64,000 nt of DNA, from positions 364,994,001-365,058,000 of the forward strand of contig OZ024740.1 in the NCBI GenBank assembly GCA_964016885.1, written 5' to 3'. Position numbers and translations under genes: made by a program. This document shows, one piece after another, positions 1,930-59,717 of this stretch. The notes under the pieces are model-generated. The model was not told the DNA's origin, searched no databases, and saw only the letters and a program-made list of their open reading frames with translations. How positions within the stretch are numbered: the stretch's first letter is position 1; each line of letters opens with the position of its first letter. The stretch is from Eledone cirrhosa. Taxonomy: Eukaryota.

Positions 1930-2094
1930 TTTATCCTGGGTTCAATTGGGGGTTACCACAGTAGGTAAGGTACTCAATACATAGCAGAGTATAAATATTT
2001 AATATAGAAATGGCTTCTACAGGACTAAAACTGTTTCATTCGGGAGAAATCATTTTTTCCCAAATGAAACAGTTCTAGTCATATAGAAGCCATT

Positions 2095-2097
<3 letters not shown>
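1930..2097. mobile_element. Penelope-like pLTR end with fold-back hairpin (2006-2097); related copies at ~3241-3350 and ~59601-59712
   Basis: agaaatggcttctacaggactaaaactgtttcatt pairs with aatgaaacagttctagtcatatagaagccatttct. The block GAAAC-agttcta-GTC-ctgtagaag (a hammerhead 3' half) recurs at ~3270 and ~59609. Confidence 0.65.
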
Positions 2098-2163
<66 letters not shown>

Positions 2164-2167
<4 letters not shown>

Positions 2168-2700
2168 TTTTACGAGGTTTTTTATATGAAATCGTGTGTC
2201 GAAACAAATATTGTTATACTTGAGAAAGACCCACTTAAAAATAAAGGTGGTAGAAAAGCCAGGAACCACCATAAAATCCCTGATCAGCAAAACCTACCCT
2301 TTTAAGAAAACCCACTGTACCAATAGGAAATATATCATATGTAAGGTGAACCCCCGGATAAACTGTAAAACTAGAAACGTAGTCTATAGCATAAGATGTA
2401 CAGAGGGTACCTGCAGAAACATGACAACAACATACATAGGTGAGACAGCTCGTAGCATAGGTGAAAGGATAGACCAACACTGGGGGGAACTAAAAGGACG
2501 AAAAAACGGGTCAGTACTATACGAACATGCTAGACAACAACATGACGGTAACATAGACAACATAGAAATTAGAATAATATCTAAACATAGAAATGACCCA
2601 GCAGATAGGTAAATCAGAGAGGCCAGTGAAATAGAAATTAGAAGACCAAGGCTAAACAGAAAGAATGAATGGAATAACAACACCCAAACAAACAACACTG
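2164..2700 (+). pseudogene. Penelope-like element 3' fragment encoding a GIY-YIG endonuclease
   Basis: ORF 2196-2612 contains NVVYSIRC...YIGETARSIGERIDQH. After the stop the frame continues IREASEIEIRRPRLNRKNEW, a typical PLE endonuclease C-terminus. Confidence 0.85.
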
Positions 2701-2963
2701 ACCTAAGAGAAGTATAAATAAGTAAATAAAATAAAATAAATAAATAAATAAATAAATACATACACAAGCACAATAACAACAAGCACATAAACACACACTA
2801 GTCACCCATCACACAGCAAACAAAACACTATACACATACGCAAACGCATGCGCAAAGAAGACAAAATAAAATAAAATAAACAAACAAGCAAATAAATAAA
2901 TAAATATATAGACAGACTGAATAAAAATGGCGTAGACATACAATACAACAGGAGGATAATATA

Positions 2964-3026
2964 ACACCACTGACGATGTTGCAGATGTGCAACGAAAGAT
3001 TTATGATAAACTATATATATGTGTTT
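2964..3026 (+). ncRNA. Hammerhead-like motif downstream of the Penelope GIY-YIG fragment
   Basis: CTGACGA(2970)-t-gttgca-gatg-tgcaac-GAAA(2994). Stem II is perfect; stems I and III are imperfect. Confidence 0.55.
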
Positions 3027-3208
3027 GTGTCTATATTGTATCTGTATTAGTTTTGACCGTCGGTCAGTCAATGGCAACATTGAGGACCGAGTAAGTTAGA
3101 TTACCGATATAAAAGACACAGAAGCAAGAAGCGAAAACCAACCAAACAGTGAGTGTGTTCTGTTATTAATTCTGGCAATATTACACAAATATGACCCTCC
3201 CCAAGTAT

Positions 3209-3243
<35 letters not shown>

Positions 3244-3760
3244 GACTTTCCAGATGATTGCTTATGAATGAAACAGCTCTAGTCCTGTAGAAGACATTTC
3301 TATAATATAACGATACCTTTACTTTACTAACTGTGGTCACCTCCCGATATACATCAGTAATCCACCTATTATCTATAGATAATATAAAAGAGAGATGTTT
3401 GTTGGTTGGTTGGTTCCTTTGCACATCACACAAAAACAAAAATTGACAATCGAAAAGTAAGTACAGCAATGGAATAAGGGTATATCCAGGAAGGTTTATT
3501 GATACTAATTTTATAAAATAAAAGAAGAAAAAACATCCTGAGTATGCTAACCAACCTGACTGCTATTTCTAGCAAGTTGGGAGACAAGCATAAGGGATTC
3601 TCTCTGCTTGTTTATTGTCAGAGATGCTTGTGTTTCATGGCCAGTGTCTCCGATTCAAACACCCCACACACACATACACGCACATACACATACACACACA
3701 TGTACACACACACACACATTTGTATATAGTTATCTATATCTATATATCATTATCTATATC

Positions 3761-3948
3761 TGCGGTGGATTGGCAGTATCAATAGTGAGTCGGACGCCAT
3801 GCTTTCCAGCATAGTTACGTCCCTTTACGGTCTGAGTTCAAATCCCGCCGAGGTTAACTTTGCCCTTCATCCTTACGGGGTCGATACAATAAAGTACCAG
3901 TAATGTACTGGGTAATTGCTGGCCTTGTGCCAAAAGTAGAAACAATTA
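3761..3948 (+). mobile_element. tRNA-derived SINE family A
   Basis: A/B-box-like head (tggcagtatc...gttcaaatccc), central gcccttcatccttacggggtcgata...gtaccag block and (att) tail. Flanked by the attatctatatct duplication. Multiple copies in the window. Confidence 0.85.
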
Positions 3949-4517: not shown

Positions 4518-4542
4518 TATATATATAATATATATATATATA

Positions 4543-9446: not shown

Positions 9447-12400
9447 TCATCATCATCATCATCATCATCATCGTTTAACGTCCATCTTCCATGCTTGCAT
9501 GGGTTTGGACGGGAGTTTTCCCACTTGAAGCAAGATTGGTTGTCCTGCTCGTATAGGACTGTCTGGCAGGTTTTCTACGGCTGGATGCCCTTCCTAACAC
9601 CAACCACGTTTACAGTGTGGACTGGGAGGTTTTTACCGTGTTACCTACACGGCCACATTACAGCGTGGACTGTGTGTTTTTTGTTGTGACACCTACACGT
9701 CTGGCGGGTTTTCTACGGTTGGATGCCCTTCCTAACACCAACCACGTTTACAGTGTGGACTGGGAGGTTTTTACTGTGTTACCTACACGGCCACATTACA
9801 GCGTGGACTGTGTGTTTTTTTGCCGTGACACCTACACGACCTCATTTGTTTCGGACTGGATGTTCTGGTACCAACCTAACTTCACAATGAAGGGGGTGGT
9901 GTGGATGGGGTGGGCGTAGTCGGACAGGGGTGTATTTTTGTTAGAGGTGCCTACTGACTGTAGGTTTCGCTTTGTACTTAGGCAAGGCGGGTCTTCTGTA
10001 TTACTGTGTAGCGCCAAAGATCTTGGTCCAGTGACATTGTCTTGGAGAGGTGTAAGTGTGTGAGGTCGGAATTTATCAAGTCGTCCCAGGTTTTTCTGGG
10101 TCTGCCTACTCCATGGCTACCGTCTATTTTTATCGCCCTGCACTTTTTTATACAGCTGTCCTCTTTCATGCGCATCATGTGACCGTACCAATGTAGTCTT
10201 CTCTCAAGTAAACAACATCTGATCCCTCTTATTCATAATTTCTCCCTTAGTTCGTTTATGCTTTGCCGTTCACGTTTATTACTATTACACATCCAGCGGA
10301 GCATGCAGGCTTCATTCCTCTCCAGTCTGCGTATATCCTCTGCACACAATGCCCAGGTCTCACTGCCATGTAACATTGCTGTTCGTATGCAGACATCATA
10401 CAGCCTGCCTCTCATTTTCAGAGAGAACCCTTTAGCGGCCAATAGTGGTATAAGCTCTCTGAACTTTTTCCATCCCGTTCTGACTCTAGCTACTGTACTT
10501 TCAGAGCACCCTCCCCCACTGCTGATTTTGTCACCCAGGTAACGGAAGATGTCCACTATTTCTATAGAACCATCTGTGCAATGGAATGAGCTAGTATTCT
10601 GTGGCAACTTGCTGCAACTTATTGCACCAGAGCACCGGCCACATATAAAATCTATATTCTTAGTTAGCTTACCTGTGATCCCACTACATCTTTTATGTAC
10701 CCATACTTTGCATTTGGTACATAAAATGGAGTTTCTGCCTACTCCTTTCCTACACACTGAGCATGGCCATTTCCCAGATGGGACCGGTGCCCTATTTTCC
10801 TTCCTACAAACTAGAACTTTAGTCTTAGACAAGTTAACTTTAAGGCCTTTTGATTCTAGGCCATGCTTCCATGTTTGGAATTTCTTCTCTAGTTCAGCCA
10901 TTGATTCAGCTATGAGCGTTAGATCATCTGCATATATGAGTTCCCATGGGCAGCCAGTCTTGAACTCCTCTGTTATAGCCTGAAGGGCAATAATAAATAG
11001 TAGGGGGCTAAGAACGGAGCCCTGATGAACACCAACTTTTACGCTAAACTCTTCACTATATTCCTTGTTAATTCTAACCTTGCTGACTCTTTCTTTATAC
11101 ATGGCTTGTATAGCTCTCACAAGCCATTCATCTACACCTAGTTTTCTAAGAGCCCACCAGATAATGGACTGGGGGACTCTGTCAAAGGCTTTCTCCAGGT
11201 CTACAAAAGCTAAGTATAGGGGTTTACTTTTAGCTAGGTACTTCTCCTGTAGTTGTCGTATAATGAAAAGAGCGTCTGTGGTACTTTTACCTGACACAAA
11301 TCCGAACTGTATTTCATCTAGATCAATTCATTCTCTGATTAATTGTGCTATTACTTTTTCTGTGGCCTTCATGACCTGGTCGATTATTTTAAAGCCTCTA
11401 TAGTTACCCCTATCTAGGGCATCTCCCTTACCCTAGTAGCAGTTAATGATGATGCTGCTACGCCAGTCCTTCGGAACGGCCCCATTCTGTATGACTTGGT
11501 TTACTATTCGGGTGACGATAGTGTGTCCCACCGTTCCAGATGTTTTCAGCATTTCAGCAACTATTTCCGAAGGCCCAGCCGCCTTACCCGTCTTCATATC
11601 TTTGATTGCCTTACCTATTATACTACCTTCAACTAGCACTGCTGGCCCCTCTATTGGATTGATGTGGGGGATACTGTCTTTCTCCCATTTATTCTCCTCA
11701 TTTAGTAGCCTTTCGTAGTGACACTTCCAAGCTACCTTCTTATCAGCGTCAGTGATGGCAAGTACACCATCATCATTAAGGACACACTTCTCCCCAACAA
11801 TATGATGGTTTTCCTTGACACATTGCCTAGCAATCCTGAACACCTCACGTTTTTGGTCCTCGCGTTGTAGAACATGCTTGAACTTTCTTTCCTCTGCTTC
11901 CCTTCTTGTGAAGTACACTTGTCTCCTAGCTTCCCTCCTGGCCACTTGATAGTCTTCTCTACTTCCCCCATCCCGCCATACTTTCCAAGCCTGCTCTTTG
12001 GCCTTGATTGACTCCTCCACCTTACTGTTTCACCACCACGTTACTCTCCTCCTGCCTATAGGCCTGCTCCAGCCACAGACTTCATCTGCCACCTTCAGCA
12101 TGTTAGCTTTCAGGAATTTCCACTGTTCCTCTATATTGTACGACTCTAATTGCTCTTCCTTACTGTCAAAAGCATCAAGTAATATGCTTTTAAATTTATT
12201 ACTGGCTGTGGGGTCCTTTAGCGTCCATATTTTTCTCCTGAGGATAATCCTCCTCTGTTGTCGAGTACGTCTTGTCCTGACTATGAGGTCGCTGACTATG
12301 AGTCTATGTTGGGAGGTGCATTCTTTATGGGGAGGGATTTAGTGTTTAGAACAGACACTCTATCACGTCTTCTGGTAAGGATATAATCTATCTGACTGGC

Positions 12401-13490
12401 GTGTTCCCCTGATCTATAGGTGATCAAGTGATTGTCTCATTTTTTGAAGTTCGTGTTACAGATAGTTAGGTTATTTGCATCACAGAATTCCAGGATTCTG
12501 GAGCCTTCCTCATTTCTAGTACCAAACCCATAGCCTCCATGGATTCCGTCATAGCCCTCACAATGTTGTCCAACGTGACCATTTAGGTTGCCAGCAATAA
12601 TTATGTAGTCACTGTCGGTTATTTGGGAGGTAGTGAGCATCAATGTCTCATAGAATCTGTCTTTTATAGCACCAGGCAGTCCGGATTGGGGTGAATACGC
12701 AGATATTACTGTCACAGTAGTTCTATTTAGGACAAGTCTTATTTTAATTATTCTGTCGTTCACTCTATTTACGTCTATTATCTTATCTACCCATTTTTCT
12801 GCTAACATGATTCCTACCCCACCCAGCCCATTGTCATTTCCCACCCAGAAACGCTTATAGCATCGTTTTTTACCCACAATGAATCTAACAGACACACCCC
12901 TCCACCTGGTCTCTTGGATACAGCAAACATCAACCTCCTTACGTTCAAGCACTTCTACAACCTCATTAGAGCGACCTTTTAAGGTGCCTACATTCATGGT
13001 ACCAACTCTGAAGTTTTGGAATGCGTTTGGTGGGTGTGAATGGTGGGGCGTGGGAAGGGGTGAGGGGGATGGCGTTGGGGTTATGTTGGCCATCCGCGGC
13101 CGAAACAAAGAGGGGGGAGTCCTTGCCTTTTCGTCTGGCAGCATGAGGCAAATTGGTCTTTATCTTTGGCATTGTCACTGAGTTTCCAGATTTTTCAGAC
13201 TCTCCAGATTCCTTAGTCCATCCATCATATCGAAAAGCAACCAGGAGTGATAGCATAGGCTGCTGACTTATGATTGGTCTAAATAATAATGGTGGAGAGT
13301 GGGGGCGGGTGGGAGGGGTATGGGGTAGTTAGCGAGAGGGTTTAAATAAAATCTTCGAATTTTGGACATAATTGGACAAGCATATAACAGTAATAAGCGA
13401 ATAATGGGATTTTAAAATACAAGAAGATTATTTAGAACAACCAGACAGAATTATAGAATAGCATTGAGAGAGAGTAAAAGACATATAATC
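9447..13490 (-). mobile_element. Near full-length RTE-clade LINE, inactivated (APE endonuclease, RT, PHD-type finger, (CAT)n tail)
   Basis: ORF pieces: 12437-13144 (GTMNVGTL, CCIQETRW = APE); 11433-12020; 10233-11297 (FVDLEKAFDRV, GVHQGSVLSPLLF, YADD, C4HC3 finger); 9978-10178 (GRPRKTW). Broken by stops and frameshifts; 5' boundary approximate. Confidence 0.95.
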
Positions 13491-15689: not shown

Positions 15690-15732
15690 ACCTTCTGATG
15701 AACCCAACCAGGTTTGAAAATTGATTAAAGAT
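15690..15732 (+). ncRNA. Minimal type I hammerhead motif; related, partly deleted copy at ~20523-20565
   Basis: acctt-CTGATGA-acccaaccaggttt-GAAA-attgat-TA-aagat. Confidence 0.55.
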
Positions 15733-15867: not shown

Positions 15868-18085
15868 TATCATCATCATCATCATCATCGCAAGATTGGT
15901 TGTCCTGCTCGTATAGGACTGTCTGTCTGGTTTTCTACGGCTGGATGCCCTTCCTAACACCAACCACGTTTACAGTGTGGACTGGGAGGTTTTTACCGTG
16001 TTACCTACACGGCCACATTACAGCGTGGACTGTGTGTTTTTTTGTCGTGACACCTACATGTCTGGCGGGTTTTCTATGGCTGGGTGCCCTTCCCAACACC
16101 AACCACGTTTACAGTGTGGACTGGGAGGTTTTTTGTTGTGACATCTACACCACCTCATTTGTTTCGGACTGGATGTTATGGTACCAACATAACTTCACAT
16201 TTAAGGGGGTGGTGTGGATGGGGTGGGGGTAGTGGGACGGGGCGTATTTTGTTAGAGGTGCCTACTGACTGTAGGTTTCGCTTTGTACTTAGGCAATGCG
16301 GGTCTTCTGTATAACTGTGTAGCGCCAAAGATCTCGGTCCAGTGACATTGTTTTGGAGAGGTGTAAGTGTGTGAGGTCGGAATTTATCAAGTCGTCCCAG
16401 GTTTTTCTGGGTCTGCCTATTCCGTGGCTACCGTCTATTTTTATCACCCTGCACTTTTTTATACAGCTGTCGTCTTTCATGTGCATCGCGTGACTGTATC
16501 AACATAGTCTTCTCTCAAGTAAACAACATCTGATTCCTCTTATTCCTAATTTCTCCCTTAGTTCGTTTATGCTTTGCCGTTCACGTATATTACTATTACA
16601 CATCCAGCGGAGCATGCAGGCTTCATTCCTCTCCAGTCTGCGTATATCCTCTGCACACAATGCCCAGGTCTCACTGCCATGTAACATTGCTGTTCGTATG
16701 CAGGCATCATACAGCCTGCCTTTCATTTTTAGAGAGAACCCTTTAGCGGCCAATAGTGGTATAAGCTCTCTGAACTTTTTCCATCCCGTTCTGACTCTAG
16801 CTACTGTACTTTCAGAGCACCCTCTCCCACTGCTGATTTTGTCACCCAGGTAACAGAAGCTGTCCACTATTTCTATAGAACCATCTGTGCAATGGAATGA
16901 GCTAGTATTCTGTGGGCACTTGCTGCTACTTATTGCACCAGAGCACCGGCCACATATAAAATCTATATTCTTAGTTAGCTTACCTGTGATCCCACTACAT
17001 CTTTTATGCACCCATACTTTGCATTTGGGACATAAAATGGAGTTTCTGCCTACTCCTTTCCTACACACTGAGCATGGCAATTTCCCAGATGGGACCGGTG
17101 CCCTATTTTCCTTCCTACAAACTAGAACTTTAGTCTTAGACAAGTTAACTTTAAGGCCTTTTGATTCTAGGCATACATACATGTTTGGAATTTCTTCTCT
17201 AGTTCAGCCATTGATTCAGCTATGAGCGTTAGATCATCTGCATATAGGAGTTCCCATGGGCAGCCGGTCTTGAACTCCTCTGTTATAGCCTGAATGGTAA
17301 TAATAAATAGTAGGGGGCTAAGAACGGAGCCCTGATGAACACCAACTTTTACGATAAACTCTTCACTATATTCCTTGTTAATTCTAACCTTGCTGACTCT
17401 TTCTTTATACATGGCTTGTATAGCTCTCACAAGCCATTCATCAACACCTAGTTTTCTAAGGGCCCACCAGATAATCGAGGGGGGTACTCTGTCAAAGGCT
17501 TTCTCCAAGTCAACAAAAGCTAAGTACAGGGGTTTACTTTTAGCTAGGTACTTCTCCTGTAGTTGTCGTACAATGAAAAGAGCGTCTGTTGTACTTTTAC
17601 CTGACACAAATCCGAACTGCATTTCGTCTAGATCAATTCGCTCTCTGATTTTTTGCGCTATTAGTTTTTCTGTGACCTTCATGACCTGGCCAATTAATTT
17701 AATGCCTCTATAGTTTCCCCTATCTAGGGCATCACCTTTACCAATGTAGCAGTTAATGATGATGCTGCTGCGCCAGTCCTTCGGAACGACCCCATTCTGT
17801 ATGACTTGGTTTACTATCCGTGTAACCATAGTGTGTCCCACCGCTCCAGATGCTTTCAGCATTTCAGCAACTATTTCCGAAGGCCCGGCCGCCTTACCCG
17901 TTTTCATGTCTTTAATCGCCTGACTTATTATACTACCTTCAACTTGCACTGCTGGTCCCTCTATTGGGTCGATGTGGGGGAGACTGTCTTTCTCCCAATT
18001 ATTCTCCTCATTTAGTAGCCTTTCATAGTGACACTTCCAAGCTACCTTCTTATCAGCGTCAGTGATGGCAAATACACCATATCAC
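15868..18085 (-). mobile_element. 5'-truncated RTE LINE
   Basis: ORFs 17167-17949 (RT, YADD), 16499-17182 (PHD finger) and 16289-16486. Highly similar to the 9.4-13.5 kb copy. Confidence 0.95.
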
Positions 18086-18289
18086 TTTACCATATAAATA
18101 TATATATATATATAAATTTATATATATGAAAAGAGTTAGGACCCCAATGGCTGAGCTCCGGCCATTTCGACAGCTAGATCCGGATTTTCCTATTACCCAC
18201 TCTACTACCCTAAGTATTGAATACTCTGGTGCGTTATGGCCCACCTGATATCTTACCACACCTTCTTTGTTATATATATATATATACAT

Positions 18290-31530: not shown

Positions 31531-31644
31531 TATATATATATACATTATTCAGTTGATGAAAGTTGGTTGATGAAAAATCTGCTGACTTTTTTATAAATAG
31601 ATGTGAAGCACTCTACAATTTATATTCCTTAGAATTTTCTCTGT

Positions 31645-31703
31645 AAGGTATTACCTGGAGTTTTAGTAAAATAAATAAGAGAGGCGGTTTTATTATTATA
31701 TAT

Positions 31704-31846: not shown

Positions 31847-31883
<37 letters not shown>

Positions 31884-31913
31884 AGATCAAAAGATGGTTA
31901 AAAGAGTTCCAAG

Positions 31914-31984
31914 TATTTTATTATGCTCATTTCAAAAACAAATATCATCATGGGATGATATTTGCGTTCTCATCAGATAAAATA
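31914..31984 (-). ncRNA. Type I hammerhead ribozyme in the PLE 3' UTR
   Basis: Minus strand: tattttat-CTGATGA-gaacgcaaatatcat...atgatatttgttttt-GAAA-tgagca-TA-ataaaata. Confidence 0.8.
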
Positions 31985-32995: not shown

Positions 32996-35153
32996 TTAGC
33001 TGTATACTTTATGGAAAGTTCTATGGGATTTATGCAAGCAGAGCGAAAATAAATCCGTACGTCTGTTTATTATAGAATTAAAATTAGATATAATGGTAAA
33101 TTTCTCGGCTAGACAGAGATTACATGTTCTGGATAGGGAAGAATTTCGGTAAGGAAAGGCGTTGCAAACCTTCCTCCAAGAGATGTTGTGGTTAATATTC
33201 TTTTAAGGACCATATGAGTTCCGAGAGTGCCGTGTTAGTTCTTTTAAGTTGGTATTTAAAAGACGATTTGTGATTATAAAATCTTGCTTTAAAGGAGGTG
33301 GAAGTGGAACCGAAATAGGTAAAAGAATTAGTACCAGTTTTAACCTTACATTCATACACTAAGTTTTTATCAAGACATTGGTTATTAAGAGGACATTTAG
33401 TTCTAACAGGTCAATTACAATTACGATTAGAGAAATTAACAGAGTTATTAACAAGTGACCTATTATTATTTATAGAAGGAATTGGATTGAGGAAGTTATT
33501 TACGATAGGAACTATAGTTTCCTGATTTAGATTGGTATTATGAACATTCAACGAAGTTACGTTTGACGTCGTATTTAAATTTACTGAATCTAGCCTAGAG
33601 TTAACATTGACGTCGGGTATGCTACTGCTATTATTATGACGCTCAATGTTGGATGGATGTAATTTATTATTTAATATTTTATTATTGTGTTTAGAGATAA
33701 TGTTAGAGATGTTGGAAGTGGTGGAATAAGAGAATTTGATTGTATGTTTGTTAAAGATTTTACTATAGATATGCGAGGAAGGGAAGCATTTATCTAAGGC
33801 CCTAAAGAATAGTTTAGGAGTATTATTAGTAATAGATAAAGAAAAAGGAGCATTATACCAAATCATATTTTTGTATCTAGGTCTTTTATTTAAGTTATTG
33901 GAATGTTCATAATTAACTATTTTACTATAAGTCCTTCGATGATTGGTTTCTTTACTGTATTTAATTTTATCAGGATAACCGGCTTTGGAAAGCGCATTAT
34001 TATAGTAATTGGCATTAGCGTCGAAGATAACTTTATTAGAGGATAGATTTGAGATTCTTTTTTCAATATTACTGACTATAGCATTTTTAACGTTAGTGGG
34101 GTGTTTAGATTTAAAATGAACATAATTTAGATTCTCATTGTTTTTACGGTAAGGGTAATATAGGCCAGTGTCAAGATTAAGGGATATATCCAAGAAGTTA
34201 GCTAGTTTGACGTTGTTATCAAATTCAATTTTACGGTTATGGTGCTTAAATAGATCAAGTATATTGTTCTTAATAATATTAAGGTTAACTAAGTTACAGT
34301 TTAAGACAGTAAAAAGTGCATCGTCACGATAAATTCCACCGCGAAGTTGAGGAATTTTCCGATTTAAAGAATTCAAAATAAAGATACCAATCAAGTCCGT
34401 CAATTGCGATGAATCGGAAGCACCCATTGTGATATCAAAATTATTGGCAGTATCAGCTCTAGTCCAATATTCATTGTTGAATTCCAAGATAGTTTTTCTT
34501 GCGGTGAGAATGATGTAAAGTTCATCTGTGGTAATGTCAGAATATTTAAATGCGAAAGATAGAGCGTTGTTGAGGAGTGAAGGCGAAATAGAAGAATAGT
34601 AACTGGCAATGTCAAACTGAATAAATTGTTGTTTGTTTTTATTATTCAGGTCATTGAACCAGCCAATTACTTCAGATGTACCAATCCATAAATTTAAGTT
34701 AGAAATAGAGCAATTAGAACGAACCTGTGGGATAATTCTATCCAAGATGGATTTACTAACAACCTCCAGATCTGATTTAGAGGGGGCGATTAGTCTAACA
34801 GGCAGTTCCGTTCGAAAGTTACTTTTATGATCCTTGAGATTTATCCTCGGAGTTCTTGGGAAGAATGGTTCGGTCTTTTTCTCGGTGCCAAGTTTAGACA
34901 TAATCTCAGAAGCTTCCAAGTTTATAGATTCCAAATTGTCATGGTTAGTTTTACGATAATTCTTCCTTAGTTCCTTAAGGATAAGGTTATTATACTTATC
35001 TTTAGATACGTCATATAAATTATTAGTTTTGTCGGAGTGGACTAAGACATTTTTAGAGGAATTAAGGTCCAAAATCGTATTCCTGAGATTTATAAGGTGC
35101 TCCTGTCCTCTATAAGGGTTTCTCTTGAATTTAAGACCTCTTATAATATTAGT
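32996..35153 (-). pseudogene. PLE reverse transcriptase-GIY-YIG polyprotein (in-frame TGA at 33411, frameshift at ~33193)
   Basis: RT motifs QFDIASYYSSI, ITMGASDS, GIYRDD, NFLDI and YRK...YVH.KS.HP. Beyond the TGA the same frame reads PVRTKCPLNNQCLDKNLVYECKV...TYFGSTSTSFKARFYNHKSSF...TALSELIWSLKEY. After the shift: ISWRKV...CNLCLAEK...NRRTDLFSLCLH...stop. Confidence 0.9.
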
Positions 35154-35329
35154 TAAAGTAAATAATAGGTTTAAAACGAGCACGGAAGGAGAGAAGAAAA
35201 AAGAGAATTTAAGGAAGAAAAAATATCTAACGTCAAAAGGTAGATATGTTTACAAAAGTTTTCTAATGGTAATATTATTATATATTAAAAAATATAGTTT
35301 CTATGGCCAATTATATTTTTTTATATATA

Positions 35330-35513
35330 ATAATTGTTTCTACTTTAGGCACAAGGCCAACAATTATTCAGTGCATTACTGGTACTTTATTTTATCGACC
35401 CCGTAAGGATGAAAGGCAAAGTCAACCTCGGCGGGATTTGAACTCAGATCGTAAAGGGACGTAACTATGCTGGAAAGCATGGCGTCCGACCCTCTACCGA
35501 TACTGCCAATCCA
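35330..35513 (-). mobile_element. SINE family A copy at the PLE inversion junction
   Basis: Reverse complement of the family A sequence. Confidence 0.85.
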
Positions 35514-35814
35514 CAATAATATTACCATTAGAAAATTTTTGTAAACATATATACCTTTTGACGTTAGATATTTTTTCTTCCTTAAATTCTCTTTTTTCTT
35601 CTCTCCTTCCGTGTTCGTTTTAAACCTATTATTTACTTTTACATATTACAATACGTAAAAACAAACTTAAACTCTAACTAATTCCTCTAAGTTCATAATT
35701 CATTTATTCTTCTCCTTCTTTCACATTATATCCTTTATATCATTAATATTTTAATTTTAATAATACATATTAATAAATTCTTTTTTTCGCACATATTATT
35801 AAACCCTTCAATAA

Positions 35815-36000
35815 GGCGGTGGATTGGCAGTATCGGTAGAGGGTCCGACGCCATGCTTTGACGCATAGAGTTACGTCCCTTGCCATTCTGATTTCAAATC
35901 CCGCCGAGGTTAACTTTGCCTTTCATCCTTACGGGGTCGATAAAATAAAGTACCAGTAATGCACTGGGTAATTGCTGGCCTTGTGCCAAAAGTAGAAACA
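35815..36000 (+). mobile_element. SINE family A copy with 19-bp target-site duplication
   Basis: TSD attattaaacccttcaata at 35795-35813 and 36001-36019; the empty site is present in the other arm (~32380-32398). Confidence 0.9.
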
Positions 36001-36403: not shown

Positions 36404-36474
36404 TATTTTATCTGATGAGAACGCAAATATCATCCCATGATGATATTTGTTTTTGAAATGCGCATAATAAAATA
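36404..36474 (+). ncRNA. Type I hammerhead ribozyme in the inverted pLTR
   Basis: tattttat-CTGATGA(36412)-long stem II-GAAA(36455)-tgcgca-TA-ataaaata. Intact core and palindromic stem III. Confidence 0.85.
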
Positions 36475-36610
36475 CTTGGAACTCTTTTAACCATCTTTTG
36501 ATCTTATATTATTTATACTCCAGTCCTATAAACTGTGGAGTGCTACTTATGCGATATTTGCATTGCTTTATTGTGCTACAATAAAACTCACCTCCTACAC
36601 ATATATATAC

Positions 36611-37570
36611 GATTCCAACCGTGACCATCCCCATTGAAAGTTTCGTGAAATCGTCTTTTTAAGACTATACAGAGCTTTTGTAGTTTTTCCAAATTGAAGG
36701 ATGAGTATTTAAACTTTATTTTATTCTGAGTTAAGGCTCTATTGATTTTTCTCTGGATTTCACAAAATTCTGTGGATAAATCTATGTCTTGATTTTTTTT
36801 TTTAAATTGAGTTTGAATTATTTTCCCACATCTTACGTTAACTATTTTTCCATGTTGACGTTATAGTCACTTATATATTATGAAATACTGTTGGCTTCAT
36901 GCTCACAATAATTTCTATACTTTCATTTATATTTATACTCGGAATTTTCATAGAGTGCTTAAAATTATTTGTGACTAATCCCGGTCTTAAAAAAAAAAAA
37001 AATGCGATAATATTGCTATTTTGCTGGACTCCTTACATTTGTAGAGTTTTTTCGGAATGTTTTTTTACTGCTGTTTCCTGTAAACAAACATTCGTCTCAT
37101 TCTGACGTCACCAGCTATGTCTCTCCATGGGCGTTTATTTTCATAATTACGCATGATGTGAACTAGCCTGCTTTTAAATTCCCTTTTTGGCATATTCTAA
37201 ACAGTGGTACTAGGGTTGTCGTGTTTTGAGCTCTGCTGACGATCGACTTCAACCGTGACGATCCCCACTGAAAGTTTCGTGAAATAGTCTTTTTAAGACT
37301 ATACAGAGCATTTGTAGTATTTCCAAATTGAAGGATGAGTATTTAAACTTTATATTATTCTGAGTTAAGGCTCTATTGATTTTTCCCTGGATTTCACAAA
37401 AATTCTGTGGATAAATCTATGTCTTGATGTTTTTTTTAATTGAGTTTGAATTATTTTCCCATATTTTACGTTAACTATTTTTCCATTTTGACGTTATAGT
37501 CACTTATATATTATGAAATACTGTTGGCTTCATGCTCACAATAATTTCTATAATTTCATTTATATTTATA
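36611..37570 (+). mobile_element. Retrozyme-like non-coding element: 634-bp unit present as a ~1.5-mer
   Basis: 36615-36935 repeats at 37249-37570 (offset 634). No credible ORF, complete hammerhead at 37230-37309, flanked by (TA)n. Confidence 0.75.
37230..37309 (+). ncRNA. Complete type I hammerhead ribozyme
   Basis: gctctg-CTGACGA-tcga...ttcgt-GAAA-tagtctt-ttt-aagacta-TA-cagagc. 6-bp stem I, 7-bp stem III, predicted cleavage after 37303. Confidence 0.85.
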
Positions 37571-37577
37571 TATATAT

Positions 37578-38803
37578 ATCATCATCATCAACGTTTAACG
37601 TCCGTGTTCCACGCTTGCATGGGTTTGGACGGGGGTAGTCCCACTTGAGGCAAGAGTGATTGTCTTGCTCGCATAGGACTGTCTGGCAGGTTTTCTACAG
37701 TTGGATGCCCTTCCTAACACCAACCACATTTACAGTGTGGGTCTGGGAGGTTTTTACCGTGTTGCCTACACGGCCACATTACAGCGTGGACTGTGTGTTT
37801 TTTTGTCGTGACACCTACACGATCTCATTTGTTTTGGCCTGGATGGCGCGGCACCAACATAACTTTACATAGAACGGGGTGGTGTGGATGGGGTGGGGGT
37901 GGTGGCGGGACGGGGTGTATTTTGTTAGAGATGCCTACTGGCAAGGCGGGTCTTCTCTGTTACTGAGTACCGCCAAAGGTCTCGGTCCAGTGACATTGTC
38001 TTGGAGAGGTGTAAGTGTGTGAGGTCGGAGTTTATCAGCTCATCCCATGTTTTTCTAGGTCTGCCTATTCCGTGGCTACCGTCTATCTTTATTGCCCTGC
38101 ACTTTGTTATACAGCTATCGACTTTCATGCGCATCACGTGTCCATACCAACGCAGCCTTCTCTCGAGTAAACAACATCTGATCCCTCTTATCTCTAATTT
38201 TTTCCTTAGTTCGTTTATGCTTTGCCGTTCACGTATATTACTGTTACACATCCAGCGGAGCATGCAAGCTTCGTTCCTCTCTAGTCTGCGTATATCCTCT
38301 GCACACAATGCCCAGGTCTCACTACCATGCAACATTGCTGTTCGTATGCAGGCATCGTACAACCTGCTTTTCATTTTTAGGGAGAACCCTTTAGCAGCTA
38401 ATAGTGGTATAAGCTCTCTGAACTTTTTCCAACCAGTTCTGACTCTAGCTACAGTACTTTCAGAGCACCCTCCCCCACTGCTGATTTTATCGCCCAGGTA
38501 ACAGAAGCTGTCCACTATTTCTATAGAACCCTCTGCGCAATTGAAAGAGCTAGTATTTTGTGGGCACTTGCTGCTACTTATTGCACCAGAACACCGGCCA
38601 CATGTAAAATCTATGTTCTTAGTTAGCTTACCTGTGATCCCACTACATCTTTTATGCACCCATACTTTGCATTTAGGACATAAAATGAAGTTTCTACCTA
38701 CGCCTTTCCTACACACCGAGCACGACCATTTCCCAGAAGGGACCGCCGCCTTGTTTTCTTTCCTACAAACTAGAACTTTGGTCTTAGCCAGGTTAATTTT
38801 AAG
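37578..38803 (-). mobile_element. 5'-truncated RTE LINE
   Basis: ORF 37925-38716 (PHD finger to GRPRKTW C-terminus), 3' UTR and (CAT)n tail. Confidence 0.95.
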
Positions 38804-39109: not shown

Positions 39110-39420
39110 CAGTGTGCCGTTTGAGCACTCGATGCTCCGCAGAGCAGAGTATAATATAGATAACGAGGAATCAGTAATAACGAGGAATCAGTGATGCATC
39201 AAAACACAGTTTATTAACATATTATATATGTCTTTCCGACGATCAGCTCAAGGCAGGATCTGTTACAGATCGAACCTGACTCTGCATTCGCAAGTTCCTC
39301 AAGAATCTGAAACAGATGGATCTGTAACAGATCCTGCTTTGAGCTGATCGTTGGAGAAACATATGTAATATGTTAATAAACTGTGTTTTGATGCATCACT
39401 GATTCCTTGTTATCTATAAT
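39110..39420. mobile_element. Fold-back PLE-type end with ~100-bp inverted arms and hammerhead 3' half
   Basis: ~39175-39271 pairs with ~39319-39415. GAAA-catatg-TA at 39356-39367; terminal hairpin tactc-tgctc-tgcg-gagca-tc-gagtgct on the minus strand at 39124-39151. Confidence 0.7.
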
Positions 39421-51130: not shown

Positions 51131-53842
51131 TCATCATCATCATCATCTTCGTTTAACGTCCATTTTCCACGCTAGCATGGGTTAGACGGGAGTTGTCCCA
51201 CTTGAGGCAAGGCTGGTCGGGTGACCGTGTCTTGCTCATATAGGACTATCTGGCAGGTTTTCTACGGCTGGATGCCCTTCCTAACACCAACCACATTTAC
51301 AGTGTGGAACTGGGAATTTTTTACCGTGTTACCTACACGGCCACATTACAGCGTCGACTGTGTTTTTTTCTCGTGACACCTACTTGATCTCGATCTCATT
51401 ATCTCATTTATTTGGACTGGATGTTGTGGTACCAACTTTATAGAGAGGGGGTGGTGTTAGTGGGAGTGGGAGGATAGGGTAGGGGTAGTGGATTGGGGTG
51501 TATATTTGGTTAAGAGGTGCCTACTGACTATAGGTTTCGCTTTGTACATAGGCAAAGCGGGTCTTCTGTATTACTGCGTAGCGCCAAAGATCTCAGTCCA
51601 GTGACATTGTCTTAGAGAGGTGCAAGTGTGTAAGGTCGGAATTTATCAAATCGTCCCAGGTTTTTCTGGGTCTACCTACTCCGTAACTTCCATCAATTTT
51701 GATCGCCCTGCACTTTTTTATACAGCTGTCGTCTTTCATGCGCATCACGTGGCCATACCAACGTAGTCTTCTCTCAAGTAAACAGCATCTGATCCCTCTT
51801 ATTCCTAATTTCTCACTTAGTTCATTTATGCTTTGCCGTTCACATATATTACTATTACACATCCAACGGAGCATGCATGCTTCGTTCCTTTCCAGTCTGC
51901 ACAGGTCCTCTGCACGTAATGCCCATGTCTCACTGCCATGTAGCATTGCTGTTCGTATACAAGCATCATACAATCTGCCTTTCATTTTTAGAGAGAAACC
52001 TTTTGTGGCCAACAGCTCTCTGAACTTTTTCCATCCCGTTCTGACTCTGGCTACTGTACTTTCAGAACACCCTCCACCACTGCTGATTTTGATACCCAGG
52101 TAACGGAAAGTGTCTACTATTTCTATAGAACCATCTGGGCAATAGAAGGAGCTAGTATCCTGTGGACACTTGCTACCTATTGCACCTGAGCATCGGCCCC
52201 ATATAAAGTCTACGTTCTTAGATAGTTTACCTATGATCCCACTACATCTTTTATGTACCCATACTTTGCATTTGGAACATAAAATTGAATTTCTGCCTAC
52301 TCCTTCCCTACACACTGAGCATGGCCATTTCCCTGAGGGTACCTGTGCCTTATTTTCCTTTCTACAAACTAGGACTTTAGCCTTAGACAAGTTAACTTTA
52401 AGGCCTTTTGATTCTAGGCCATGCTTCCATGTTTGGAATTTCTTCTCTAGTTCAGCCATTGCTATGAGCGTTAGATCATCTGCGTATAGGAGTTCCCATG
52501 GGCAGCCGGTCTTGAACACCTCTGTTATAGTCTGAAGGGCAATAAAAAATAGGAGGGGGATAAGGACAGAGCCTTGAGGGACACCTACTTTTACACTAAA
52601 TTGTTCACAATATTCATTGTTAATTCTAACCTTACTGACTGTTTCATTATACATAGCTTGTATAGCTCTCACAAGCCATTCATCAACACCTAGTTTTCTA
52701 AGAGCCCACCAGATAATGGAGCGGGGAACTCTGTCAAGGGCTTTCTCCAGGTCTACAAAAGCTACGTAGAGGGGTTTACTTTTAGCTAGGTACTTCTCTT
52801 GTAGTTGTCGTATAAGGAAAAGAGCGTCTGTGGTACTTTTACCTAACACAAACCCAAACTGCATTTCATCTAGATCAATTCGCTCTCTGATTAGTTGCGC
52901 TATAACTCTTTCTGTGACCTCCATGACCTGGTCAACTAACTTAATGCCTCTATAGTTTCCTCTATCTAGAGCATCTCCTTTACCCTTGTAGCAGTTAATG
53001 ATGTTGCTGCTACGCCAGTCTTTTGGTATGACCCCATTCTGTATTACTTGGTTAACTATATGGGTGACCATAGTATGTCCCACCATTCCAGATGCCTTCA
53101 ACAACTCAGCAACTATCTCCGAAGGCCCAGCTGCCTTGCCTGTCTTCATATATGTTTGATTGCCTTACTTATTATACTACCTTTAACTTGCACTGCTGGT
53201 CCTTCTATTGGATTGATTTGGGGCAGACTATCTTTTTCCCATTTATTCTCCTCATTTAGTAGCCTCTCGTAGTGACACTTCCAAGCTACCTTCTTATCAG
53301 TATCAGTGATGGCAAGTATACCATCATCATTTAGGACACACTTCTCCCTGACAATATCACGATTTTCCTTGACACATTGTCTAGCAATCCTGAACACCTC
53401 ACGTTTTTGGTCTTCATGTTGTAGAACATGCTTGAACTTTCTTTCCCCTGCTTCCCTTTTTGCAAGGTACACTTGTCTCCTAGCTTCTCTACTGGCCACT
53501 TGATAGTGCTCTTTACTTCCCCCATCCTGCCATACTTTCCAAGCCTGCTTTTTGGATTTGATTGTCTCTTCTACCTTACTGTTCCACCACCAAGTTACTC
53601 TCCTCCTGCCAATAGGTCTGCTCCAGCCACAGATTTCATCCGCTGCTATCAGCAGATTCATTTTCAAGAATTGCCACTGTTCCTCTCTATCGCATGTCTG
53701 TAATTGCTCTTCCTTATTGTCAAAGCCATCAAGTAATAAGCTTTTAAATTTGTCACTGGCTATGGGGTCCTTCAACTCCCATATTCTTCTCCTCAAGGCA
53801 GGCCTCCTCTGTCGTCGAGTATGTCTATTCCTGACTATGAGG
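51131..53842 (-). mobile_element. 5'-truncated RTE LINE
   Basis: ORFs 51593-53149 (RT, YADD, PHD finger) and 53146-53796; (CAT)n tail. Confidence 0.95.
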
Positions 53843-54301
53843 ATATATATTATATGATATATTTTATTATATATATATATATATAATAAAAGTATGTGTC
53901 CTATATGTAATTAATACATACAGGGATACAAGTATAGTCCGTATGCCAGTGTGGTTCAATAGCAAGTTAATTGGAATTTAATTATAGATGTATAATTATT
54001 TATTATTATTTTTGAGGTTAACTTTGCCTTTCATCCTTATGGGGTCGATAAAATAAAATACCAGTAATGTACTTAGTAATTGCTGGCCTTGTGCCAAAAA
54101 GTAGAAACAATTATTTTTTAAGATCTTTTCTGTGTTTACACCCCCTTGGTTTTATATATATATATGTAGTAATAATTATCCTCACTTTTTTCTGTTCATA
54201 GCCAGGGAACGTCTTCACGAACTAAACTATCGTCTTCCTGTTTTCCTTCGGTTGCAACGTTTTTGAAATATTTACTTCTGCGACCATGGATTGATTTTTT
54301 T

Positions 54302-56092: not shown

Positions 56093-56110
56093 ATATATAT
56101 ATATATATAT

Positions 56111-57315
56111 TCGGTACACAAGGATGCAATTCACTTCTAGCACTCAACGCCATATTCCCAATGACAGGGGTGCCGGAGTATATTAATAAAGATGAAAATG
56201 CAAAGCTGAAGGTGTTAGAGTCCTTTATTATTTGAGCTGTTATATATATTTCAATGACGATAAACATTGTGATGTCTTCAGACAGCAAAAATCGATTAAA
56301 AGGTAACAGTTCTGAGGCAATTTTATTTGGAAGGGAGTGGACTAAAAAAAATGTGTTTTTGCTTTGGTTGTCCACCCCCTTCTGGTTTCACGCCATCCAG
56401 ATAGCTCTGCGCATGTCATGTGTGGGTGGCTGACCCCTTCACCTACACCCAGAATACTACCAACCTTGTATGTTCTCTCCCTCTAGTAATCTCCCACCTC
56501 CTTGGCCGACAACTCGATATCGTCAGTGGGAGTTCAAGCCAGCCCAAATTTACTGCTAGCTTTGGCAACCGGTAGGATTTCGATGCATTTGTACCCGCCA
56601 TCTGTTTATGGCGGGATAATCACCCCAAAGCAAGAAAGTTCCCTTCTGCTATGGTTAATATAACTTATCATAGATAATATTTAAAGTTTCCCAATCCGAA
56701 AAAATTTCTAAGTTTCAAACATTAATAGTTGAAAAATTAGGAGTCCAGACAACTAGGCAACAGTCAATTTGCTAAGGATAAGAAGATATCTGGCCACTTG
56801 TCGTGGATGACATGTAAAATTTAAAGTATTTAATTTAACAAGTGTTAAAATTAAAAATAAACGAATGTAAAAAATTAAACAAATGTAAAAATAAAAAATT
56901 AAACAATCCTACAGTTGGTATCCCAGTCAATCCGGTGGAGACAAAAAGATACATTTATGGTTTAAGTAAAAATGTACAAGTAAGGAAGAACGAGGGAAAA
57001 AACGAAGAAAAATACATAGAATAAAATAAAGGGGAGAAAAAATATATATGAATATAAGGTAAAAAGACCTATAGAGAGAATGAAGGAAACATAGAAGGAA
57101 AAATCCGTGATAAATGTATGAGTGGGGGCGAGTTATAGAGAGTCAGTTATATTCACAGTGCTTCGAGTATTTTGGTCCATGCAGTTGCAGCTGGGTGAAC
57201 CTCGCAGACTGTCCATGGCTATAAGAGATGGGGTGGAACCCAGCGGGAGATCCGCCTTCCAGGGTGTTGTATGGAGAATAAGAGGTAGTAGTTGCTTCTT
57301 TTTTTTTCATCTTTA
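56111..57315 (-). mobile_element. Putative non-autonomous PLE-type element between (TA)n tracts
   Basis: Hammerhead at 56236-56286 and terminal tactcc...gagtgct hairpin at 56139-56180. The upstream extent is inferred from the flanking (TA)n. Confidence 0.55.
56236..56286 (-). ncRNA. Type I hammerhead ribozyme
   Basis: Minus strand: gctgt-CTGAAGA-catcacaatgtttatcgtcatt-GAAA-tatata-TA-acagc. Confidence 0.8.
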
Positions 57316-57330
57316 TATATATATATATAT

Positions 57331-58137
57331 GCAAAAGGCTTTTCCCTCAAAATGAAAGGCAGACTGTATGATGCGTGTATACGAACAGCAATGTTACATG
57401 GTAGTGAGACCTGGATGCTGTCTGTAGAAGACTTGCGTAGATTAGAAAGAAACGAAGCCTGCATGCTCCAATAGATGTGTAATAGTAATATACGCGAAGA
57501 GCGAAGTATAAACGAATTAAGAGAGAGACTGAGCATAAGAGGAATCAAATGCTGTGTGCAGGAGAGGAGGTTGCGTTGGTATGGACATGAGATGCGTATG
57601 AAGTATGACAGCTGCATAAAAAGGTGCAGAGCTCTAGAAGTCGATGGAAGCTGCAGGGTGGGGAGACCCAAGAGCACCTGGGATGAGGGGATAAAAGCCG
57701 ACCTTACCCAACTGCACCTCTCAAGAGCAATGACACACGACTGTGACCTCTGGCGTCACGCAGTAACACAGAAGACCCCCCCCCCCCCCCCCACCACCAC
57801 CACCCACACGTGAACAAGCCAAAGCTGAAGCATATAGACAATATGCCCCCACACGCTCCCACTGCAAAGTGGTTATGGAGGTGCCACGGCAAAAAAGCAC
57901 CCAGCCCACACTGTAAAGGGAACGTTTAGGCGCCACGGAAAAAAGCACCCAGCACTCACTGTAAATGAGGTTGGTGTTCGGAAGGGCATCCAGCTGTAGA
58001 AATCAAGCCAGAATCAGTTCCCAAATGAGCAAAACAAGGTCAGCCGACTGGACACTGCTCACAACAGGACAACCCATCTAACCCATGCTAGCGTGGAAGA
58101 ACGGACGTAAAACGGTGATGATGATGATGATGATGAT
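57331..58137 (+). mobile_element. RTE LINE 3' end with (GAT)n tail
   Basis: AKGFSLKMKGRLYDACIRTAMLHGSETW...RRLRWYGH...GRPKSTW. Confidence 0.9.
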
Positions 58138-58147
58138 ATATATATAT

Positions 58148-58477
58148 GGAGGCACATGGCTTAGTGGTTAGAGCATTGGCCTTGCAATCAAAAGGTTGTG
58201 AGTTCAATTCTCAGACCGGGTGATGTGTTGTTTCCTTGAGCAAGACACTTTATTTCACATTGCTCCAGTTTACTCAGCTGTAGAAATGAGATGATAGGGA
58301 TTGGGGTCCATATCATTCCACTGCAAAGTGGTCGTGGAGGTGCCACGGCAAAAAAGCACCCAGCACTCACCGTAAATGAGGTTGGTGTTAGGAAGGGCAT
58401 CCAGCTGTAGAAATCAAGCCAGAATCAGTTCCCGTCCCACCCTTGCAAGCAGGGAAAAAGCGGACGTAAAATGATGA
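58148..58477 (+). mobile_element. SINE family B, full length
   Basis: Near-identical to 54385-54721. Confidence 0.9.
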
Positions 58478-58849
58478 TATATATATACACACACATATAT
58501 ATATATATATCATATATACTCGTGTATAAGTCATACCATTTAAAAAAAAAAAAAAATCAATTCTGTATGAGCAAGACATGGTCACTTGACCTGACATTAC
58601 CCACAACAGGACAACTTGTCTAACCCATGCTAGCATGGAAGAATGGACGTAAAACAGTGATGATGATGATGATGATCATGGTCATGATATACTCTTTTAC
58701 TCTTTTACCTGTTCCAGCCATTCAGCTGAGGCCATATATATAAGTGGATAGTATCACCCATTCACTTTTTCTATCTCTAGGGATTTACATGGCCAGCTTG
58801 TTTGACTGTTTTCCAAGTAAAAAAACTTATGTAGATGCAGCTTACTTCA

Positions 58850-59205
58850 AGCAATGATGATGTTGTTGATGATAGTGGTAATGATGGTAATACTGATACT
58901 GCTACTTCTGCTGCTGATGATGGTGACAATGATAATGGCTGCGATGATGATTGTGGTGATGGTGATGATGATGATGATAATGATGATGGTGAGGTTGATG
59001 ATGAAAATGATGATAAGGGAGTGATGATGATGAGGAAAATAGCAATAATGATTATAATTTGAAGTTGGATAAAGACAATAATAGTGGTAGTGATGGTATT
59101 GAGTATGGTGGTTATGATGATGATGATGATGATGATGATAATGAAGTTGATGATGATGATGATGATGAAGTTGATGATGATGATGATGGTAAAAATAAAT
59201 GATGA
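58850..59205. repeat. Degenerate (GAT)n-rich tract
   Basis: Visible low complexity. Confidence 0.85.
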
Positions 59206-59717
59206 CATTTTGAGGAAAGAAAGCTGACTTATAGTTGAAAAGATATGTTTTGATGGATGTAACACTTCTATTTACATAAAACTACAAAATAAAACATAAA
59301 AAAAAATAAAAGTCCATTTGTTTTTTTCAGTTCCATAATAGATATTATTGTAATTGTGAATATAAATATTTTATAGCTGAGACAAATTTTCTTTATGTTG
59401 ATGTTGAAAAATTTTCTTTCATAGCTTTGATATATCTAGTGAAAAATTCTTTTTAAAAAAATAAACAAAAACAACAGCAACAACAAAAAATTGACTACAA
59501 ACGTTCATAGAAGTATTTTGATAGTAATAATGTCCTAGCATTTGCTTGTAAACAAAGAGTTTTTTTTCTTCTCTCCATGCAAATCAAATAGTATATATAC
59601 ATTCGAATGAAACAGTTCTAGTCCTGTAGAAGTCATTTCTATATTAAAAATTTATACTCTGCTATGTATTAAGTACCTTACTTACTGTGGTTACCCCCAA
59701 TTGAACCTGGTATATAT

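Follow-up and report, generated by a model that had tools for sequence, protein, structure and literature searches.

Paired bulged hairpins bound the "tail" of Hydra-clade PLEs and of their non-coding dependants

Hydra-clade PLEs and their non-coding dependants share a real bulged stem-loop motif, RCUC-[variable stem-loop]-UN-GAGY-RCU, with a core of 15 nt. Full-length elements carry it twice, as hairpins H1 and H2 lying ~60 nt apart upstream of the ATG (12–55 nt from H2 to ATG), and copies end in (TA)n mostly 5–8 nt before H1 (tail-less ends) or 6–11 nt before H2 (tailed ends). Since tail-less ends precede H1 and tailed ends precede H2, the PLE "tail" is the H1–H2 interval, independent of the distance to the hammerhead. 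The motif appears to be new: our literature search did not find a description of it, and it stands unannotated in published coral and sea-cucumber consensi.

The window, by which we mean the whole 64-kb stretch of DNA analysed, holds these hairpins and the remains of their carriers at the following places.

1969–1990, minus strand: H1 bulged hairpin of family G (a Hydra PLE; full-length references L329 and L331), in the tailed arm of a short inverted pair
18199–18225, plus strand: H1 whose 3' arm carries a G>A change; this copy runs out in (TA)n shortly ahead of the H2 place of its full-length relative L086/L241
31334–31383, plus strand: type I hammerhead of a truncated Hydra end
31441–31463, plus strand: H1, 57 nt past the cut site; a tailed end comes next
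31607–31661, minus strand: H1 with a long upper stem-loop, within a 5'-truncated tailed copy
31879–31976, minus strand: hammerhead (31922–31976) and tail-less 3' end of a large Hydra element, stopping in (TA)n 7 nt before the expected start of H1
33411–35249, minus strand: Hydra-clade PLE ORF with RT, DKT and YRDD motifs; the open frame ends at the CxCX5C linker and the endonuclease part is broken
36412–36466, plus strand: hammerhead of an inverted, outward-facing pLTR belonging to the same insertion as the large Hydra element
36517–36544, plus strand: H1, 50 nt past the cut site
36545–36606, plus strand: tail spacer and tailed end; the (CA/TA) run begins 11 nt before the H2 position of L056 and relatives
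36620–37575, plus strand: non-coding tandem element of ~635 bp, 1.5 units, with a hammerhead at 37236–37303; the second unit ends in (TA)n immediately ahead of its H1
36937–36959, plus strand: H1 of the non-coding unit, 268 nt past the cut site; absent from the first-pass annotation
37028–37050, plus strand: in the non-coding unit, a hairpin resembling H2 that retains its stem and bulge but has Us in place of the 3' RCU triplet
39124–39150, minus strand: H1 of family D; the hammerhead is decayed in this copy
56110–56281, minus strand: hammerhead (56241–56281), H1 (56139–56179) and a tailed end ~8 nt before the H2 position of L017/L239
59656–59677, plus strand: H1 of family G with G>A in the 3' arm

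In the copies at 1970 and 59655 the truncation falls within the hammerhead, and no hairpin lies within 300 nt of the window hammerheads at 15695 and 60112. The first-pass annotation had proposed a shared TACTC(C)...GAGT hairpin, and the motif is indeed present at every window place that it cited; strict structural matches in the 64 kb number 6 against 0–1 in each of 20 local shuffles, a version with one mismatch being no more frequent in the window than chance allows (15 against 6–16). A covariance model built from 37 hairpins with those of the window excluded (8 of them from elsewhere in the source genome and partly of the same families) ranked 8 of the 9 window hairpins as the top 8 of its 12 hits and missed 59656. 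Genome-wide, the pattern is matched 27,751 times and its reversed control 444 times; separate counts give 19,755 for the G–C form (control, 998) and just 4,301 for the form with an A–C mismatch (control, 1,953), and outside the source genome the G–C form is the commoner one. Across 78 metagenome loci, 52 of 58 read-through hammerheads carry the hairpin. Counts of the double hairpin in the source genome (3,960 against 1,040, and 982 against 222) are swamped by a 58-bp satellite and were set aside as support. The 81 Rfam matches (E up to 1) are repeat-driven miRNA-like and tRNA-like pieces only, none of them representing a comparable family at the hairpin positions. Read by eye, the consensus is without the bases that define an H/ACA box or a kink-turn, and both readings were rejected. 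The 3' arm also contains a degenerate palindrome, AGYRCT.

By motifs and architecture, we assign the elements to the Hydra-clade PLEs and their non-coding dependants, and all traceable carriers fall there, related by deep descent rather than "otherwise unrelated" as had been supposed. Intact 821-aa relatives of the window ORF exist in the source genome. DKG is modified to DKT in the window ORF and in most of 30 ORFs, and a CxCX5C linker precedes the C-terminal GIY-YIG domain in 28 of the 30, broken by a stop in the window copy. That copy is 5'-truncated, so the N-terminal RWK motif was judged on relatives (RLRW in the intact relative L055; R37 in 65/65, W38 in 63/65); the arginines before WFNPP (R-x-R) are likewise conserved (R483 in 68/68, R485 in 66/68). 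A predicted type I hammerhead, its core and stems I and III found by script, lies in the pLTR, and Rfam gave no hammerhead hit; (TA)n insertion, an inverted pLTR and a one-sided tail all occur. A Pfam search of the window ORF found no family and a viral contig collection (viral_contigs) no relative, and the best structural matches of a predicted model of the Hydra protein are TERTs. The hairpins are retained in non-coding units, i.e., the 635-bp unit, the L291 unit and the L061/L083 unit. Among the consensi available from PMC8557442 (File S7), Hydra-2_Amil and Hydra-2_Ajap contain the hairpin and Hydra-1_Ajap begins with both; read by eye, Hydra-1_Crog (sea louse) departs from the pattern by a purine bulge and altered pairs, and no canonical copy is seen in Hydra-1_Obim. 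The available Naiad and Chlamys consensi of that paper gave four 9-mer hits inside the sequences and none at their ends, in a search that could miss hits across line breaks.

The structure of the hairpin is conserved by covariation across families, though it is thermodynamically weak. In a set of 48 hairpins from 32 families (<70% identity), whose carriers have a median protein identity of 46%, the first upper pair is kept in 45 hairpins (C–G in 29, U–A in 15) and the second in 37, levels reached by 0 of 5,000 shuffles in either case, although such shuffles ignore the relatedness of the sequences. The register with a 2-nt bulge scores 0.78 against 0.26–0.40 for other registers, and the bulge U is present in 47 of 48. 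Four hairpins judged mis-assigned (H1 of L323 and L019, H2 of L170 and L197) were kept in this set and dropped from the energy, strand and 37-hairpin analyses, and alignment A4 leaves out 7 more with very short or long loops; in the 37-hairpin subset, 96.6% of cells are paired (84.7 when shuffled) and covariation is 0.296 (at most 0.165 when slid). Three lower pairs never vary and thus are evidence of sequence conservation only, and a fifth pair below the stem is unsupported (22/48 against a shuffle mean of 23.7). RNAalifold predicts the lower 4 pairs only. The upper stem is weak, with a median probability of 0.29 for its first pair and an energy no more stable than that of shuffles, and the lower stem exceeds a probability of 0.5 in 26 of 44 hairpins. 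Internal G–U pairs number 6 against 1 A–C (p = 0.125), with energies alike on both strands; the 12 nt preceding the hairpins are 79% A/T; and the H1–H2 spacers are slightly more alike than shuffles (−5.2 against −7.5). The fixed stem base described earlier is confirmed as a hairpin, in an account that had missed its fixed 2-nt 3' bulge, its G–C form and the second copy of the motif.

Mapped ends tie both classes of terminus to the hairpins. In a set that includes a small number of duplicates from overlapping loci and of internal TA runs taken for ends, 55 of 72 tail-less ends lie 5–9 nt before H1 (31–64 nt from cut to end), and 21 of the 23 mappable tailed ends lie 6–11 nt before H2, three more families agreeing; 37 of 60 tailed ends are without an H2-bearing reference. 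A hammerhead-free test placed 95 of 131 mapped (TA)n junctions at 5–8 nt, satellite loci L243–L285 being excluded from both analyses. Of the 38 terminal partial units of the non-coding element, 33 break off at query positions 312–318, the base of H1 and 268 nt from the cut; the end-to-hairpin distance is much the same for a hammerhead 27 nt away as for one at 268 nt. The 45–60 nt previously given from the cut to the hairpin is about right for three copies (50, 57 and 61 nt), and wrong for the 1970/59655 family (27 nt) and for 36937 (268 nt). Nor is the hairpin "terminal": it stands at the start of a tail that is optional, and of the first 100 hammerhead copies 58 stop just before it. Family G lacks a canonical H2: 9 nt past its end stands only a 4-bp hairpin with no bulge, and of its 11 tail-less ends 3 deviate (2, 17, and 17 nt). 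Inverted pairs have one end of each class in 20 of 21 (p = 1e-5) and in a further 9 of 9, i.e., 29 of 30, the exceptional pair having two short ends. At the junctions with (TA)n, the ends show microhomology of a few bases. Positional enrichment and covariation, the two checks that the first-pass annotation itself had named, were both found, and they lend support to its suggestion that the motif acts in cis within the PLE tail, for recognition by the RT or for priming.

Taken together, ends and structure suggest that each hairpin of the pair probably docks the reverse transcriptase and fixes the start of the cDNA ~7 nt 5' of itself. The ORF protein would bind the hairpin as RNA, the GIY-YIG domain would cut (TA)n, and the freed 3' end would anneal to a short run of U/A immediately 5' of the hairpin. 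A cDNA primed at H1 would then have no tail and one primed at H2 would include H1 and the spacer, i.e., the "tail"; the two cut strands could be primed in one event, at H1 and at H2, probably by two RT subunits on one RNA, and the two cDNAs joined head to head.

The same ends and structures bear on other explanations. If nothing but U/A-rich microhomology or hammerhead distance set the ends, and the hairpins were inherited or controlled translation near the ATG, an A/T-rich stretch before each hairpin, the closeness of H2 to the ATG and the descent shared by all elements would be accounted for; yet cut-to-end distances run from 31–64 nt up to ~260 nt while end-to-hairpin distances stay near 7, longer TA tracts nearby (e.g., in hammerhead stem III of several families) go unused, the non-coding dependants keep the hairpins, and the proteins are just ~46% identical, so that we regard this account as very improbable. 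Action at the DNA level, with the GIY-YIG domain recognising the hairpins in cDNA or an intermediate and cutting beside them to leave the end classes as resolution sites, is favored by the 3'-arm palindrome; the G–U and A–C counts and strand energies given above are compatible with either strand. A one-sided U–N bulge is an RNA-type feature, which counts against such action, as does the junctional microhomology, which priming would yield. The available text of PMC8557442 does ascribe the tail to EN-mediated resolution, and that of PMC11167929 recalls a D. virilis tail needed for EN recognition of plasmids, but the latter also reports Poseidon-Ac genomic ends equal to RT start sites on the RNA; overall, we consider a DNA-level role improbable.

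All positional data fit equally well a course in which the hairpins position priming but no dimer takes part, the ends arising either from two RNAs or sequentially from a single enzyme that starts the first strand at one hairpin and, after a second nick, primes again at the other. If two RNAs acted independently, only about one pair in two should have mixed ends, and the 29 of 30 seen therefore count against them; a sequential course would have to be supplemented by a rule that keeps the enzyme from using one hairpin twice, and Poseidon-Ac is, in the available text, modelled as a dimer that extends both strands (PMC11167929). We judge this alternative unlikely, though still worth serious attention.

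Paired priming by a dimer on one RNA can be taken further, and more speculatively: the invariant U-N-G-A-G/C-U-C core might fold into a U.A-U triple like that of TAR, to be read by arginines, for example those of the R-x-R before WFNPP. By this analogy, we tentatively propose, while leaning against the proposal as a whole, that an RT dimer of Hydra PLEs grips two TAR-like hairpins via invariant arginines, that each subunit primes one strand at the (TA)n break, starting 7 nt before the hairpin that it holds, so that the hairpin spacing becomes the tail, and that the 60-nt cassette, borrowed by retrozymes, could aim any RNA at TA repeats. The purine bulge and altered pairs of Hydra-1_Crog and the absence of a canonical hairpin from Hydra-1_Obim weaken the TAR analogy.

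PLEs are the sister group of telomerase, and the hairpins bear on how they choose their RNA and acquire a one-sided tail. The one in vitro study narrowed the signal to 172 nt; in Hydra elements it may be reduced to a 15-nt core, present twice, and a fixed 7-nt rule and a pairing rule would each predict the outcome of simple mutations. The hairpins offer a candidate cis signal for retrozyme mobilisation and a way to annotate Hydra ends, and the cassette might serve as a portable tag for inserting RNA-templated sequence at TA repeats.

Among known systems, UnaL2 and R2 are examples of stringent stem-loop recognition, and telomerase RNA elements place the template, with boundary elements stopping synthesis 5' of it. 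In stringent LINEs the signal sits 5' of where synthesis starts and becomes part of the copy, whereas the Hydra hairpin lies 3' of the start. The 3' stem-loops of stringent LINEs and their SINEs (PMC5135761) are alike in that an RT-recognised stem-loop is borrowed by non-autonomous partners, but theirs is a single copied signal upstream of the RNA 3' end, and Hydra elements would have two signals downstream of the start sites, the used one remaining uncopied. Hepadnavirus epsilon (PMC8903280) is a bulged stem-loop that fixes the RT start, as the Hydra hairpin may, but it templates protein priming from its bulge. HIV TAR, as far as depicted in the accessible part of PMC11885821, shares a bulged U, any second base and then G–C, A–U and G–C pairs, with the bulge on the other arm, a resemblance of local sequence geometry only, in which the three pairs were part of our search pattern.

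Closest are the Hydra-clade EN+ PLEs of Craig et al. (2021; PMC8557442), which, in the text available, agree with the window elements in the C-terminal EN, RWK, DKT, CxCX5C, a canonical hammerhead, (TA)n targets, an inverted 5'-truncated pLTR and a tail at one end; the tails differ (~55–90 nt or more here against 30–40), and the accessible main text does not contain "hairpin" and links the tail to no motif. The Poseidon-Ac RT in vitro (Frangieh et al., 2024; PMC11167929) uses two internal start sites that bound the tail and needs RNA 3' of them, extends both strands and is predicted to dimerise, hammerhead cleavage being dispensable. Poseidon-Ac belongs to a different clade, however; its binding signal is narrowed to 172 nt, its starts lie inside the ORF and its Fig. 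S1 RNA is without the hairpin motif. Non-LTR retrozymes (PMC7229834; bioRxiv 10.64898/2026.07.22.740005) likewise consist of non-coding units in tandem, bearing a type I hammerhead, for which mobilisation by PLEs has been proposed; the available text of those papers names no cis signal, whereas window-type units keep H1 and H2 and end beside them.

The motif proposed in the first-pass annotation is present at every window place it named, and an extra copy lies at 36937. The window yields 6 strict structural matches versus 0–1 in 20 shuffles, and across the whole 3.0-Gb genome—AT-rich animal DNA in which (TA)n is abundant throughout—the cited pattern matches 27,751 times versus 444 for the reversed control. 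In order, this small bulged stem-loop comprises RCUC, an upper stem-loop that varies, a bulge of 2 nt opening with U, GAGY and an unpaired RCU (G-C form, 19,755 matches vs. 998; A-C mismatch form, 4,301 vs. 1,953). One reading frame identifies its carrier in the window:

33411–35249, minus strand: Hydra-type ORF with DKT and YRDD motifs; frame stops at the CxCX5C linker

These marks characterize the Hydra clade of Penelope-like elements (PLEs; PMC8557442, section 11), to which we assign the element on sequence marks. Intact 821-aa relatives exist, and a structure model of one intact ORF (pLDDT 92.7) finds its best structural matches in telomerase RTs. The element has two outward-facing terminal repeats (pLTRs) that share one hammerhead. 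The left repeat stops in (TA)n, 7 nt short of the hairpin, and the right crosses the hairpin to end 51 nt further on. A hammerhead pattern characteristic of such families occurs 126,225 times vs. 5,230. An inverted short-interspersed-repeat pair (35306–35960) lies inside the element where its two arms meet. Other repeat families in the window carry hammerhead-like motifs without the hairpin (2970, 15695, 20528, 60112–60142), the 60112 family also ending in (TA/CA)n, ~125 nt past the cut. Several decayed retrotransposon frames (10233–13159, 16499–18081, 37925–38803, 51593–53910) we take to be RTE-like non-LTR retrotransposons.

The carriers had been described as unrelated, which is incorrect: every one that could be traced belongs to the Hydra-clade PLEs or to non-coding partners that depend on them, and ORFs are 34–99% identical (median 46%, 30 ORFs). 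Because the ORFs diverge to this extent, we infer that the hairpin, found in 32 families, was kept by selection over deep descent and does not reflect one young family. Among 78 Hydra-type metagenome loci fetched from the best 80 of 353 confirmed, 52/58 read-through hammerheads have the hairpin; of the six without it, three are tail-less ends (stopping before the first hairpin) and two look like false hammerheads. Of 48 hairpins drawn from the 32 families, 45 form the first upper pair (C-G 29, U-A 15), 37 the second and 31 the third; the bulge begins with U in 47, and pairing is found in the 2-nt bulge register alone (0.78 vs. 0.26–0.40). Covariation is borne out, with 96.6% of cells paired in 37 hairpins versus 84.7% in shuffles that ignore relatedness. 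Against this, thermodynamic calculation makes the upper stem weak, and RNAalifold recovered the lower stem alone. By eye, published coral and sea-cucumber consensi contain the motif, the sea-louse consensus has a variant, and a canonical copy is absent from the Hydra-1_Obim consensus.

Where copies continue into the ORF, a second hairpin (H2) follows the first (H1). H1 starts 36–67 nt past the hammerhead cut site in 31/32 families, H2 lies 44–90 nt after H1 (16 families with both), and 12–55 nt separate the H2 end from the ATG (14 families where H2 is placeable); the published Hydra-1_Ajap consensus opens with both. Some H1 or H2 upper domains reach 50–65 nt on an unchanged base (L299:1234–1312, L109–L113), and therefore the loop tolerates large inserts. 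In an autonomous Hydra family (L086/L241; window 18130–18280) both hairpins are intact, yet the hammerhead of the copies seen has a non-canonical core and its stems II and III are long.

Element ends track these hairpins. Among the first 100 hammerhead matches on contig 1, 58 end before H1 and 33 after; 5 cross H1 but show no TA run, and the remaining 4 fit none of these classes. The hairpin is thus not "terminal," as first labeled. Tail-less ends lie 5–9 nt before H1 in 55/72 mapped cases, whereas their distance from the cut site ranges over 31–64 nt. Tailed ends, which pass H1 (60 in total, 23 with an H2 reference), stop 6–11 nt before H2 in 21/23, and three further families agree. Independently of hammerheads, 1,190 (TA)n junctions and 347 hairpins gave 131 junctions mapped near a hairpin, 95 at 5–8 nt and 109 at 4–12 nt, which upholds the predicted positional enrichment. 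In family G, the Hydra family of the window copies at 1970 and 59655, 8/11 ends follow the H1 rule, but the one hairpin past the tailed end, at 9 nt, lacks the bulge. A tail often on one side only was already known (PMC8557442; PMC3846280). Of the outward-facing pairs, 20/21 combine a tail-less end with a tailed one (p = 1e-5 vs. one half), as do 9/9 in family G.

Non-coding units carry the hairpins too. In the window's 635-bp tandem unit H1 lies 268 nt from the cut site, and 33/38 terminal partial units genome-wide stop at the H1 base (counted by eye): this is a natural test in which H1, not the distant hammerhead, marks the end. Other non-coding units retain both hairpins. A ~200-bp tandem unit (L291:1100–1800, minus strand) has both, a remnant of the ORF start, a hammerhead-like fold with core CAGA in place of CUGA, and ends 5–6 nt before the hairpins. 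A ~580-bp family (L061, L079, L082, L083, L085) has H1 and what may be a long H2, whose stem foot holds a U-A pair; no canonical hammerhead core was found in the stretch inspected. A 58-bp tandem satellite spans ~18 kb of the same genome (G000:C1:14,234,975–14,252,855; L243–L285). Each unit consists of a single bulged hairpin and a spacer and equals an H1–H2 tail unit in size; the satellite may originate from repeated copying of the tail. Smaller hairpin-bearing arrays occur at C1:418,305,890 and C2:169,702,762.

The earlier proposal of a cis element for RT recognition or priming in the PLE tail is right at its core, as ends track hairpins and the stem pairs across families; that the hairpins position the ends, or starts, is strongly supported by these sequence comparisons. 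In vitro (PMC11167929), Poseidon-Ac RT initiates at two sites within the RNA that bound the tail. It requires RNA 3′ of these sites, works whether or not the hammerhead has cleaved, and extends both strands; it is modeled as a dimer. Combining the end data with the Poseidon-Ac results, the simplest reading is that each hairpin is an RT dock. Each would dock one RT with its active site ~7 nt upstream, at a short U/A tract to which a cut (TA)n end would pair. H1 would serve to prime one strand and H2 the other, and the resulting cDNAs would be joined head to head. Less probably, the hairpins act at the DNA level: internal G-U pairs number 6 against 1 A-C (p = 0.125), and folding energy does not differ between the strands. 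We lean slightly towards two RT subunits on one RNA. A base triple like that of HIV TAR (PMC11885821), read by the invariant R-x-R of Hydra ORFs (arginines in 68/68 and 66/68), is a tentative lead we rather doubt. By eye, the Poseidon-Ac RNA (PMC11167929, Fig. S1B) has two GAAAG words at a distance of ~35 nt, with an ACAAC tract behind each, a lead that other PLE clades may double their signal too.

The motif is undescribed in the consulted text of PMC8557442, PMC11167929, PMC4209133, PMC3846280, PMC7229834 and a 2026 retrozyme preprint (bioRxiv 10.64898/2026.07.22.740005). A full-text literature search, whose scope excluded subscription journals, Repbase/Dfam notes and some supplements, returned no description of it and no printed account of one motif setting each end through a separate copy. 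The hairpin would work much as do the stem-loops that the RT of stringent LINEs recognizes; it differs in lying 3′ of its start site and in being doubled.
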